64,000 nt of DNA from Escherichia coli. GTDB taxonomy: Bacteria > Pseudomonadota > Gammaproteobacteria > Enterobacterales > Enterobacteriaceae. The translations under genes and the position numbers were made by a program. Shown here piece after piece: positions 26,505 through 35,801 of the stretch (positions are counted from its first letter, which is position 1; every line of letters starts with the position of its first letter). The stretch lies in NCBI RefSeq assembly GCF_050920415.1, contig NZ_CP169309.1. One strand, given 5' to 3'. The notes beneath the pieces are model-generated. The model saw only the letters and a program-made list of their open reading frames with translations, was not told the origin of the DNA and ran no database searches.

Positions 26505-27932
26505 ATGAGCGATAAAAAGAAGCGCAGTATGGCGGGTTTGCCGTGGATCGCGGCGATGGCCTTCTTCATGCAGGCACTTGATGCCACTATTCTGAATACC
26601 GCCTTACCCGCAATCGCTCATAGCCTTAATCGTTCTCCTCTCGCGATGCAATCAGCCATCATCAGTTACACGCTGACGGTGGCGATGCTTATTCCGGTAA
26701 GCGGATGGCTAGCCGATCGCTTCGGTACGCGTCGCATATTTACCCTTGCCGTGAGTCTGTTCACATTGGGTTCTCTGGCCTGCGCACTTTCTAACTCGCT
26801 ACCACAGCTGGTTGTCTTCCGGGTTATTCAGGGGATAGGTGGCGCAATGATGATGCCTGTTGCTCGGCTGGCCTTACTGCGTGCTTATCCTCGTAATGAG
26901 CTTCTTCCTGTATTGAATTTTGTCGCCATGCCGGGTCTGGTGGGGCCAATTTTAGGCCCCGTACTTGGCGGCGTGCTGGTCACCTGGGCAACCTGGCACT
27001 GGATATTTTTAATCAATATCCCCATAGGTATTGCCGGCCTTCTTTACGCGCGCAAACATATGCCCAATTTCACCACCGCACGACGCAGATTCGATATCAC
27101 TGGCTTTTTGCTGTTTGGCCTCAGCCTTGTTCTCTTCTCAAGCGGAATAGAGCTATTCGGTGAAAAGATTGTCGCCAGTTGGATTGCCTTGACGGTAATT
27201 GTCACCAGCATCGGGTTACTGCTTCTCTATATTCTCCATGCACGACACACGCTAAACCCATTAATTTCATTAGATTTATTTAAAACCCGCACTTTCTCGA
27301 TCGGTATAGTAGGCAATATTGCAACCCGTCTGGGGACCGGCTGTGTACCGTTCCTTATGCCATTGATGTTACAGGTAGGATTTGGTTATCAGGCGTTTAT
27401 TGCCGGCTGTATGATGGCACCGACAGCATTAGGTTCCATTATTGCAAAATCGATGGTTACCCAAGTCTTACGTCGTCTGGGCTATCGCCATACGTTAGTG
27501 GGGATCACGGTAATTATTGGGCTAATGATCGCTCAGTTCTCTTTGCAATCACCAGCAATGGCGATATGGATGCTGATCTTGCCGTTATTTATATTAGGGA
27601 TGGCTATGTCGACGCAATTTACCGCGATGAATACCATCACACTTGCCGATCTGACCGATGACAACGCCAGCAGCGGTAACAGTGTTCTGGCGGTCACGCA
27701 GCAACTGTCTATCAGTTTAGGCGTTGCTGTAAGTGCGGCCGTCCTTCGCGTTTATGAAGGGATGGAAGGCACAACGACTGTCGAACAATTCCACTATACG
27801 TTTATCACAATGGGCATTATTACTGTTGCTTCAGCAGCAATGTTCATGCTTCTGAAAACAACCGATGGTAATAATTTGATCAAAAGACAGCGTAAATCTA
27901 AGCCGAACCGCGTTCCATCAGAATCGGAGTAA
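26505..27932 (+). CDS. hsrA: MFS transporter HsrA/YieO (14-TMS drug:H+ antiporter-like)
   Basis: 475-aa hydrophobic [44 protein letters not shown]... Confidence 0.88.
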
Positions 27933-28890
27933 GTTGTAATCGTTGTTGCTGAAGGGTCGGCTGGGTTATCCGATGGATGAGTACATCAATCGCCAGCTCC
28001 CCCAGTTCATCTTTCGGTTGATGGATAGTGGTTAATGGTGGCGTCATAAAGCTTGCCAGTTCGATATCGTCATAGCCAATCACCGCGATATCCTGCGGAA
28101 CCTGTAACTCTGCCTGATATAGCGCCTGGTAAACGCCAACAGCCATAGCGTCATTTCCGGTAAAGACGGCCTGAGGACGCAGCGGATGTGATAACAGTTG
28201 GCGCATAGCGTCAAACCCACCGTTAAATTCAAAATCACCCGTAACTTCATAACCATCGGGAATGTTGAGACCAGCTCTCTTCATCGCCGCCCGATAACCT
28301 TCTAACCGCAGGCGCGCCGGTGTTTTATCCAGCGGGCCAGTAATACAAGCAATACGGGTATGACCTTTATCGATCAGATATTGCGTTGCTAAGTCTCCGC
28401 CCAGCAACGAGTTATCCTGAATAAGATCGCTGTCGCCGTCGAACGGTGCCCAGTCCATCATCACGGTAGGCACTGTCGGATAACGTTGCATGATTTCACG
28501 CGAAGGCTGATGCGTTTCGGTGCACAGTAACAGCAAGCCATCAACGCGTTTTTGCATCAGCGTTTCCAGATTGCGATTCATCCGCTGTTCATCGCCTTCG
28601 GTATTGCAAAGGACAAGACTATAACCGCGTTCGAAGCAGCTGCGTTCAACGCCACGCACCAGTTCAGAATAGAAAGGATTGGTACTGGCAGTGATCAACA
28701 TGCCAATAGTATGTGTTTGATTGAGTTTGAGGCTACGCGCCAGAGCTGATGGCGCGTAATTGAGTTCTTTAATCGCCGCTTCAACTTTGGCGGTAATCGC
28801 TTCACTGACGAAGCGATCTTTATTGATAACGTGAGAAACTGTTGAGGTAGAAACGCCCGCCAGGCGGGCAACATCTTTCATTGTAGCCAA
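27898..28890 (-). CDS. rbsR: Ribose operon repressor (LacI family)
   Basis: 330-aa [58 protein letters not shown] (LacI HTH). Confidence 0.93.
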
Positions 28891-31833: not shown

Positions 31834-33339
31834 TTACTCCTGATTCACGCGATTAAGCTTGCCCACAGCGGCAGCCATTAACACTTCCTGGGTGGCCTGC
31901 TCACGAGTAAATTCCCCGCTGAGATGCCCTTCATGCATGACGATGATGCGATCGCTCATGCCTAATACTTCTGGCATCTCCGATGACACCAGAATGATGC
32001 TCAAGCCATCGGCTTTGAACTGGTTAATCAGTTGATAGATCTCTTTTTTCGCACCAACATCTACGCCACGGGTAGGTTCATCAAGAATCAACACTTTGGG
32101 GCGTGTCATCAGTCCACGGGCAATCGCCACTTTTTGCTGATTGCCACCGGAGAGCAAACCAATTGCCTGTTCCATCGACGGCGTTTTCACATTAAACAGA
32201 CGAATAAAATCACTCACTGCCTGCTGTTCATCGGCATGCTTCAAACTGCCGCCAGTACGGCTAAAGTAACGCAGCGCAGTCAGCGACATATTCTCTTTGA
32301 CTGACATACCCAGCACTAAACCGTCACGTTTGCGGTCTTCGGAGATATACACAATGCCGTTTGCCAGGCCATCCTGCGGTGAACGGGTAACGACTTCATG
32401 CCCATCCAGAGTGACGTAACCGCTGGTGCGCGGCAGTGCGCCGTAGAGCACTTTCATCAGTTCAGTACGACCTGCGCCCATCAAACCAGAGACGCCAAGA
32501 ATTTCACCTTTGCGTAAGGTAAATGAAACATCATTAACGCCAGGTCCGCAGAGATTATCGACTTTCAGGCGGATATCGCCCGGCGCTTTGTCCAGGTGTG
32601 GATATTGATCTTCCAGCTTGCGGCCCACCATCATCTCAATCAGCGAATCTTCGGTCAGTGATGCCACTTCGCGCTCAGCAATAAATTGCCCGTCACGAAA
32701 AACAGTAACGTCATCGCAAATTTCGAAGATTTCTTTCATGCGGTGGGAGATATAGACAATACCGCGGCCTTGCGATTTCAGCTCGCGGATGACGCGGAAC
32801 AAGGATTCGGTTTCGGTATCGGTCAGTGCATCGGTCGGTTCATCCATAATGATGACTTTCGACTCAAAGCTCAGCACTTTGGCAATTTCAACCATTTGCT
32901 GGTCACCGATGGAAAGATCGCCCACCAGCTTGTCACTTTTAAAACGCAGGTTAAGTTTAGCCAGCAATTTATCCGCTTCGGCATACATGGTTTTCCAGTC
33001 AATTTTGCCAAAGCGATTAACAAACTCACGACCGAGGAAAATGTTTTCGGCAATGGTTAACTGCGGGATCAGGTTCAGTTCCTGATGGATGATTCCAATG
33101 CCGGCTTCCTGGGATGATTTCGGTCCGGTAAACGTCGTTTCTTTCCCCAGCCATAAAAGCGTACCGGCATCGCGAGTATAGATACCAGTAAGCACTTTCA
33201 TCATGGTGGATTTACCCGCGCCGTTTTCGCCCACCAGCGCCATCACGCGGCCAGGATAGACATTTAACGCTGCGCCCGAGAGGGCTTTTACGCCCGGGAA
33301 GGCTTTATCGATGCCTTTAAGCTGAAGTAATGCTTCCAT
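31834..33339 (-). CDS. rbsA: Ribose ABC transporter ATP-binding protein (duplicated ABC domains)
   Basis: 501-aa [51 protein letters not shown] with two Walker A/ABC-signature sets. Confidence 0.94.
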
Positions 33340-33346
33340 GACGGCC

Positions 33347-33766
33347 TCAGAACGTCACGCCAGCATAGAGAATGATATTCGCATACGGAGAACATTCTCC
33401 GCTGCGAATTACCGCCTGACTTTCTGCGGTTTGTTGTTTGAATTGTTCATGCGTGGTGTAACGAATTTCAATGGTATTTCCCTGGTGTTTTTGCAGCTGC
33501 TCAAGGTGAGTGAGCAACGTTTCGTGGAGTTGCGGATTATGTTGTTTGATCTCTTCCGCGATAATGGCAGCCTCGACCTGCATTTCATTTGTGACGACGC
33601 CCAGCACCTGCATAAAAGAAGGTACCCCCTGGGTTAATGCCATATCGATACGCGTTGTACTTTTGGGGATGGGTAAACCAGCATCACACACCACCAGCGT
33701 ATCGGTATGTCCCAGACGGGAGATCACCGAAGAAATATCAGAATTAAGAACGGTGCCTTTTTTCAT
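33347..33766 (-). CDS. rbsD: D-ribose pyranase
   Basis: ORF 33347..33778; the internal ATG at 33766 gives [35 protein letters not shown] (139 aa). Confidence 0.9.
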
Positions 33767-33777
33767 TTTTTTCTCCA

Positions 33778-33797
33778 TCAGCGAAACGTTTCGCTGA
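33778..33797. promoter_or_regulatory. rbs operator: perfect 20-bp palindrome (RbsR binding site)
   Basis: tcagcgaaacgtttcgctga is a perfect inverted repeat about 12 nt upstream of the rbsD start; LacI-family operators are typically such palindromes. Confidence 0.65.
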
Positions 33798-33932
33798 CCC
33801 GCAGTTTAATCCTGACTGAGTTGGGAAAACCATCGTGACGTTACGGAAATGTGATCAACATCGAAACGTTTTACATGGTGATTAACCATGAAAACAAAAA
33901 CGCCCCCTTATGGAGAAAGGAGGCGTCTGGCG

Positions 33933-35801
33933 TTAAATTTCGACCTGAGTACCCAGTTCGATAACCCTGTTTGGCGGGATTTCAAATTGATCCGGTGCGC
34001 GCAGCGCATTACGTTGCAACAGCAAATACAGCTTGCCGCGCAAACGCAAATACCACGGACGTTTGCCGAGGATCAGTGATTCATGCGACATAAAGAAGGA
34101 GGTTTCCATCATCCGGCAACTTAATCCTTCCAGACCACAGCGGTGGAAAACTTCTTCCACGTTTGGCGTTTCCCGCCATCCATAACTTGCCACCACGCGC
34201 CAGAAAGTGGGCGACAGTTGTTCAATCTGTACCCGACGGACGTTATGGACATATGGCGCGTCTTCAGTGCGCAGAGTTAACAGAATCACCCGCTCATGCA
34301 ACACCTTGTTATGTTTCAGGTTATGCATCAGTGCAAAGGGAATGACGTTGATTGCACGCGACATATACACCGCGGTCCCTGGCACGCGAACGGGCGGTGA
34401 TTTCTCCAGCGAAGCAATCATCGCTTCCAGAGAGTTGCCATGTTCATGCATCCGCCGCAGCAAGCGGAAACGCTCGCTCTTCCAGGTCGTCATCACGATA
34501 AACATTACCGTACCGAGACTCAGTGGCAACCAGCCGCCTGATAGCAGTTTATCGAGGTTAGCGGTGAACAATGGAATATCAACACAAAGGAAAGCAATCA
34601 GGATCAGCGCAACAAAATACTTATTCCAGTGCCAGTTCTGACGTGCCACGGTAGTTGAGAGAATAGACGTCAGTACCATGGTTCCGGTCACCGCAATCCC
34701 GTACGCCGCCGCCAGGTTGCTGGAGTGCTCAAAGCTGACAATCACAATCACGACCGCGACATAGAGCATCCAGTTCACAAACGGAATATAGATTTGCCCA
34801 GACTCCATTTCGGAGGTGTGAATAATGCGCATCGGCGACAAATATCCCAGACGTACGGCCTGACGCGTCAATGAGAAGACGCCAGAGATAACTGCCTGCG
34901 AGGCAATTACCGTCGCCAGTGCGGCGATGATCAGCAGCGGGATCAGCGCCCAGTCCGGTGCCAACAGGAAGAACGGGTTCTTAATCGCTTCCGGGTTCTT
35001 TAACAACAGAGCGCCCTGGCCAAAGTAATTAAGAGTTAATGAAGGCAATACGACGGTGAACCACGCCAGGCGAATCGGGAACTTACCAAAGTGCCCCATA
35101 TCAGCGTACAGCGCCTCGACACCGGTAATCGACAGCACCACTGCCCCTAACGCAATAAACGAAACCGTTTTATATTCAAGGAAGAAATGCACCGCCCACA
35201 TCGGATTCAGCGCATGCAGCACTTCTGGGTTAGCAATAATGCTACGCAACCCCAGTCCCGCCAGAATCAAAAACCAGGTCAGCATGATAGGCGCAAACAG
35301 CTTACCGACCATAGCAGTGCCATGTTTTTGAATCATAAACAGTAAAGTCAGAACGATGATTGAGAGGGGAACTATCCAGGTATCCAGCTGCGGGGCGACG
35401 ATTTCCAGACCTTCAATGGCAGACATCACCGAAATAGCGGGTGTAATGACGACTTCACCATAGAAAAAGCTGCCGCCGATTAATCCCATAATCACCAGCA
35501 TTGATGTGGTTCGCGCCGACGTATTGCGTCCGGCAAGCGACATCAACGTCAGAATGCCCCCTTCCCCGGCGTTATCTGCCCGCATCACGAAGGTGAGATA
35601 TTTAATGGAAACCACAAAGATTAGCAGCCAGAAGATCAGCGATAAAAAGCCAAACACGGCATCGCGTTCAACGCCAAAACCAAACTGGCCGGACAAACAT
35701 TCACGAAGTGTATATAACGGGCTGGTACCAATATCGCCGTAGACAACTCCAATCGCCGCGAGGGTAATCGCGGGCAACGATTGCTTATTATCAGTGCTCA
35801 T
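33933..35801 (-). CDS. kup: Low-affinity K+ uptake protein Kup (KUP/HAK/KT family)
   Basis: 622-aa [39 protein letters not shown]... Confidence 0.94.

Follow-up and report, generated by a model that had tools for sequence, protein, structure and literature searches.

The perfect palindrome upstream of rbsD in Escherichia coli is very probably the RbsR operator rbsO, and relatives may carry a second operator overlapping the CRP site

The ribose operon rbsDACBKR of Escherichia coli is, according to several papers, under the control of RbsR, a repressor that is released by ribose; in Serratia, both the repression by RbsR and its release by ribose were shown by gel shift. A 2025 preprint reports the crystallized complex of RbsR with its operator rbsO (PDB IDs: 9NY7 and 9NY8, both entries titled 'Ribose operon repressor'), and describes hinge helices lying in the minor groove, a 45-degree bend of the DNA, induction by ribose, and an operator that is symmetric, without the extra central base of lacO1. 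The promoter is also linked to CRP: rbsD is included in a list of RegulonDB CRP targets, and the activity of its promoter tracks CRP activity.

The stretch of DNA that we analyzed (64 kb of an E. coli chromosome, referred to as the window) carries the rbs operon on its minus strand, with the gene order kup-rbsD-rbsA-rbsC-rbsB-rbsK-rbsR (as given for a genome that is 100% identical). The last gene of the operon, rbsR (27898..28890, minus strand), is annotated as encoding a LacI/GalR-family repressor and is intact; its product matches PDB entry 9ny7 with an E-value of 6.5e-221. The intergenic region between kup and rbsD is exactly 33767..33932: the stop codon of kup is at 33933..33935 (based on the ORF list and the annotation), and kup has a predicted intrinsic terminator (a G+C-rich hairpin with a T-run after it) at 33898..33928 (minus strand). 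The exact 20-bp inverted repeat reported just upstream of rbsD in an earlier, sequence-only reading of this DNA is real. It lies inside the intergenic region at 33778..33797 (minus strand; TCAGCGAAACGTTTCGCTGA, hereafter O1), and has two 10-nt arms, 100% complementary, with no spacer and with ACGT at the centre. The 64-kb window holds no other perfect palindrome whose arms reach 8 nt, and no further copies of O1 were found there with up to three mismatches (0 expected). Its architecture fits that of the operators of the LacI/GalR family (an inverted repeat of 16–20 bp with a central CG step). Of 5426 complete E. coli genomes, 5411 have a match to a 621-bp query around O1, in every case at kup and rbsD.

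O1 is almost certainly rbsO, the known operator of the E. coli rbsDACBKR operon, at which RbsR would block the rbsD promoter until it is released by ribose. The assignment to RbsR, already made in the sequence-only reading, holds up well: the K-12 30-mer at this place is the rbsO DNA that was crystallized (the MG1655 sequence GTGGGTCAGCGAAACGTTTCGCTGATGGAG agrees letter for letter with the oligonucleotide used with RbsR), and rbsR is in the same operon. O1 is thus a site already known in detail, down to its crystal structure. The window and the K-12 30-mer differ at a single base, which flanks the palindrome on its upstream side (GCGGG versus GTGGG, respectively). This base, at window position 33801, is polymorphic in Escherichia, and the same stretch reads GCGAA or GCTGG in other species; it would lie in the -5 to -1 region of the promoter, outside the palindrome.

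The consensus of PurR operators is GCAAAC/GTTTGC. Among proteins with a solved structure, PurR is the nearest relative of RbsR, and its operators share the central AAACGTTT with O1 (Ravcheev et al. call the RbsR and PurR motifs closely related); these are the points in favor of O1 being the operator of another LacI-family paralogue, e.g. PurR, and not of RbsR. We consider this extremely improbable, as O1 has the RbsR-type bases CGAAAC/GTTTCG in both of its arms, it fronts the ribose operon, and RbsR has been crystallized on O1 DNA.

The conservation of O1 supports its assignment as an operator, and also narrows the site. The segment 33768..33800 is identical in 5375 out of the 5411 E. coli genomes. 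We collected 80 loci from other Enterobacteriaceae species (fetched by RbsD similarity), giving, together with the window, 81 upstream regions. The 16-bp core AGCGAAACGTTTCGCT (33780..33795, minus strand, delimited by comparative alignment) is unchanged in 80 of these 81 sequences, and the central 14 bp (CGAAACGTTTCGCT with its mirror image) show no change in any of the 81. At the two outermost positions of either arm, in contrast, there is variation outside Escherichia: only the six sequences from Escherichia are symmetric over all 20 bp, and most of the others have TCAGCGAAACGTTTCGCTAG. The description of O1 as a 20-bp operator is therefore correct for the symmetry seen in the window, but only the inner 16 bp are conserved outside Escherichia; judged from this alignment, '20 bp' overstates the functional site, with 16 of the 20 palindromic bases being under selection.

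The same data bear on whether the palindrome could be a functionless inverted repeat that arose by chance. Some palindrome with 10-nt arms is found in about 8% of simulated windows (8 out of 100, mean 0.08, using a first-order Markov model), but the core of O1 is invariant across our sequence set while the adjacent intergenic bases diverge, and O1 is identical to an operator that has been used experimentally. A chance origin is vanishingly improbable; we exclude it mainly because O1 is conserved among the E. coli genomes and its core among the enterobacterial sequences, and on these conservation data the idea is already refuted.

The core is invariant including its four central bases, with no compensatory change, which argues for base-specific recognition by a protein and not for an RNA stem. 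O1 could otherwise be thought to act mainly as RNA, with the rbsD mRNA being stabilized, or its translation modulated, by a hairpin at its 5' end, and with DNA binding being secondary. The leader is indeed predicted to fold into an 8-bp hairpin (-10.7 kcal/mol for the centroid structure) that leaves the Shine-Dalgarno sequence free, and this hairpin would be at the very 5' end of the transcript if transcription starts at about 33796. However, the 16 core columns invariant in 80 out of 81 sequences include the four bases of the loop, the fold of the leader is ordinary when compared with shuffled sequences (z = -1.33), and it is on O1 DNA that RbsR was crystallized; we therefore regard a mainly RNA-level function as very unlikely. 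A scan of 33300..34000 against Rfam gave no meaningful family match. With O1 taken as a DNA operator, a side effect of the hairpin on mRNA stability is possible.

Upstream of O1 we found candidate elements of a CRP-dependent promoter, and their conservation and spacing provide a comparative argument for the geometry of the rbsD promoter. A CRP-like site, TTCGATGTTGATCACA (TTCGA-TGTTGA-TCACA), is at 33850..33865 (minus strand), as supported by conservation and geometry. Its right half GATCACATTT matches the consensus, and the whole site has two mismatches to TGTGA-N6-TCACA; as a pattern the site is not significant alone (19 matches with up to two mismatches in the window, versus 27.8 expected). 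Neither of the half-sites, TTTCGA and GATCACA, varies in any of the 81 sequences. In about 70 of the 81, a hexamer of the form TAnnnT, in most cases TAAACT or TACACT, begins at a fixed distance of 49.5 bp from the centre of the CRP site; in the window it is TAAACT at 33803..33808 (minus strand), the putative -10 hexamer of the rbsD promoter, which is 14–15 nt upstream of the centre of O1. A conserved block, ATGGTTTT (33826..33833, minus strand), occupies the position expected for the -35 element, a role that we assign from its place, but it matches TTGACA poorly. No promoter was called in a generic sigma-70 scan of 33700..34000, which we attribute to the poor -35 element, typical of activator-dependent promoters.

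If the hexamer is taken as -12 to -7, the centre of the CRP site falls at -61.5, where class I sites classically lie, the start of transcription at about 33796 and the centre of O1 at +9.5. The transcription start would then be inside O1, which would span approximately -2 to +19; in the species with a gap shorter by 1 nt, the centre of O1 would be at +8.5. The footprinting by Mauzy & Hermodson (1992) is said to have placed the RbsR site across the transcription start. We infer the steric mechanism, the exact start and the position of CRP, with the occlusion and the +9.5 placement of O1 drawing on geometry and on that reported footprint.

In the mechanism that we propose, a dimer of RbsR, encoded at the end of the operon, would bind the half-sites AGCGAAAC and GTTTCGCT, its hinge helices would enter the minor groove at the central CG and bend the DNA, and the bound repressor would sit where RNA polymerase must form the open complex or escape from the promoter. 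Ribose bound to RbsR would lower its affinity for DNA and free the promoter, which, given its poor -35 element, would be reliant on cAMP-CRP about 61.5 bp upstream; rbsD would then be translated from the ATG at 33766, served by GGAG.

The CRP-like site of the window carries a T at 33857, in its spacer (cgtttcgaTgttga), where K-12 has a G; this is a spacer position that is not contacted. The segment 33846..33880 is identical to that of the window in only 18 out of 5411 E. coli genomes, so the window has a rare allele here.

The accepted start of rbsD is reconfirmed. The gene (33347..33766, minus strand; D-ribose pyranase, 139 a.a.) starts with the ATG at 33766, as supported by annotation, homologues and frame analysis, and the shorter start favored in the sequence-only reading is upheld by the GGAG, the RefSeq annotation and the comparative frames. 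GGAG (33773..33776, minus strand), a Shine-Dalgarno sequence 6 nt upstream of this ATG, is unpaired in the predicted fold of the leader, and TGG[A/G]G is conserved across the 81 sequences. RbsD is annotated with 139 a.a. in both RefSeq/PGAP and the K-12 record, and its homologues of known structure (PDB IDs: 3e7n from Salmonella and 1ogc from B. subtilis) begin or align at MKK.

The other candidate is an upstream in-frame ATG (33776..33778, minus strand; from the ORF list), which would give a 143-a.a. protein starting with MEKKMKKG. It is in frame with rbsD, the frame is open in E. coli, the codon is probably on the mRNA, and an in-frame open ATG or GTG is found at the same position in 25 out of 81 sequences. 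In the other 56, the equivalent position is out of frame (51 sequences), is followed by a stop (three) or is CTG (two); among the 51 is one locus of Escherichia sp. (L003), with an A-run shorter by one base. In-frame starts upstream of the conserved ATG are absent altogether in 52 of the 81 sequences, and the distance from the operator to the ATG ranges from 20 to 28 nt and changes by steps other than multiples of three. The sequence before the ATG at 33778 bears no resemblance to a ribosome-binding site, this ATG is also at the base of the predicted operator hairpin, and the annotations and homologues, including RbsD of B. subtilis, favor the 139-a.a. protein that begins with MKK. Translation from 33778 is thus most improbable. 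It had also been argued that the longer start can be dismissed as it overlaps the palindrome. The overlap exists but is of one base only (the A of this ATG is the last A of the palindrome), and it is weak support for the shorter start since operators can overlap coding sequences; the mRNA probably begins inside the operator, so that both AUGs would be transcribed, which weakens the argument further.

Two minor observations concern the RbsD protein. Near its C-terminus (33350..33370) the Salmonella protein 3e7n has a C (...NVILCAGVTF) where the residue in the window differs, a minor polymorphism, and RbsD from the representative E. coli locus of our collection is 99% identical to that of the window.

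A second AAACGTTT is present 78–80 bp upstream of O1 in 81 out of 81 sequences. In 75 of them it is part of a near-consensus site (GCGAAACGTTTCGA, hereafter O2) that is identical to the O1 core at 15 out of 16 positions; the single difference is an A in place of a C, from which the CRP half-site TTCGA has its GA. GCGAAA, which is outside the CRP 22-mer, is conserved in 75–81 of the 81 sequences, whereas conservation of the next three bases upstream does not exceed 62. Because this conservation extends beyond the CRP 22-mer, O2 in these relatives is best read, on the alignment, as a real RbsR site fused to a CRP site. At the base pairs shared within O2, RbsR would be in competition with CRP, which would add an anti-activation lock to the lock at O1.

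The genomic picture in Escherichia is different, as O2 is degraded there to GTAAAACGTTTCGA: all six sequences from Escherichia have GTAAAAC as the left half, and both of the bases that are invariant in O1 (C and G) are changed. The remnant in the window, CATGTAAAACGTTTCGATGT (33858..33877, minus strand, identified by comparison), is RbsR-like, shares bases with the CRP site in the left half of the latter and is 80 bp upstream of O1, but it is far from the consensus, with TGTAAAAC as its left half instead of AGCGAAAC and a 13/20 match to O1. We put forward, tentatively, that most Enterobacteriaceae have a two-operator rbs promoter, in which O1 would block the polymerase and O2 (at approximately -71 to -71.5) would evict CRP, and that the one-operator promoter of Escherichia is derived. 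With similar doubt, Escherichia may have lost the left half of O2 (GCG to GTA) while gaining the symmetric 20-bp O1, the latter possibly being a compensation for the loss of O2. That only one RbsR site is annotated at rbs in E. coli fits the decay of O2 in Escherichia. RegPrecise lists 17 RbsR sites in 11 enterobacterial regulons, so second sites have probably already been catalogued for some genomes; no description of the O2–CRP overlap or of the loss of O2 in Escherichia was found in the searchable literature, and full-text searches with the O2 sequence found no relevant paper. If the two-operator arrangement is true, E. coli differs from what is typical of its relatives through the loss of a second, CRP-overlapping operator, and this loss could matter for synthetic-biology parts built on RbsR/rbsO and for comparisons between species of the place of ribose in the catabolite hierarchy.

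DNA looping between O1 and O2 was also considered, and is unlikely: RbsR is handled as a dimer, operator spacing makes no difference to a chimera with the regulatory domain of RbsR, and the distance of 78–80 bp is equally explained by the geometry of the promoter.

One E. coli genome out of 5411, that of strain PEC209 (NZ_CM168015.1; locus L083), has a clean 80-bp deletion, equivalent to 33788..33867 of the window. The deletion joins O2 to O1 at a direct repeat shared by the two sites (AAACGTTTCG), producing a hybrid operator (TGTAAAACGTTTCGCTGA), and the rbsD promoter loses its -10 and -35 as well as the CRP site; going by its sequence, PEC209 is probably unable to express rbs from the normal promoter.

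The stretch from the kup terminator to the CRP site of the window holds a near-palindrome, TTTTCATGGTTAATCACCATGTAAAA (26 bp, 33870..33894), whose two 10-nt arms are separated by 5 nt and show 90% complementarity. Part of it coincides with the left half of O2, the half that is degraded, and its region has no alignment outside Escherichia. It may serve as a protein site specific to this lineage, or as a further hairpin following the terminator of kup.

A candidate for a third operator inside rbsD (CACGAAACGTTGCTC, 33512..33526, with two mismatches) was rejected: six such matches were found versus 3.75 expected, the left half is perfect and the right half poor, and the low synonymous variation around it spans the whole second half of rbsD with no peak at the site. 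CACGAAACGTTGCTC is conserved in most species, in a way that is indistinguishable from coding or RNA constraint. The low variation is an observation of its own. Across the 81 Enterobacteriaceae, synonymous diversity in rbsD codons ~72–139 (33350..33560) is about half that of the first half of the gene (means of 10-codon windows are 0.3–0.7, mostly 0.3–0.55, in the second half, and ~1.0 in the first), and Leu84 is encoded by TTG in 81 out of 81 sequences. This part of the rbsD mRNA has been reported to pair with DsrA, acting as an sRNA sponge that lowers RpoS translation; it also precedes the tightly spaced start of rbsA.

Among known systems, the closest to this locus is rbsO of K-12 itself (Mauzy & Hermodson 1992; PDB 9NY7/9NY8): the 20-bp palindrome, its position, the operon and the repressor gene are identical, and the two differences, one base upstream of the palindrome and one in the spacer of the CRP site, are nothing of substance.

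The likeness to lacO1 and LacI is in the layout of the promoter. Both operators are dimer sites of the LacI/GalR family just downstream of the start (lacO1 at +11, O1 at an estimated +9.5), both repressors are released by a sugar, the CRP site of lac is at -61.5, as that of rbs would be from its geometry, and both complexes have hinge helices in the minor groove and a bend of 45 degrees. rbsO differs from lacO1 in being perfectly symmetric, without the extra central base pair, and RbsR differs from LacI in being a dimer without the tetramerization helix. Since the chimera with the RbsR regulatory domain is indifferent to operator spacing, one would not expect RbsR to loop the DNA to an auxiliary operator.

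PurR operators share the AAACGTTT centre with O1, and PurR arose from a duplication of RbsR. The difference lies at positions 5–6 from the centre, which are CG in rbs and GC in PurR operators, and in the response to ligand: PurR binds DNA with its ligand, RbsR without.

For O2 only, there is a likeness to the promoters shared by CytR and CRP, and to the GalR operator OE beside the CRP site of gal, in that a repressor site and a CRP half-site share base pairs. GTTTCGA contains TTCGA, so repressor and activator should interfere with each other at O2. CytR, however, is recruited by CRP, whereas at the putative O2, which is degenerate in E. coli, mutual exclusion would be the likelier outcome.
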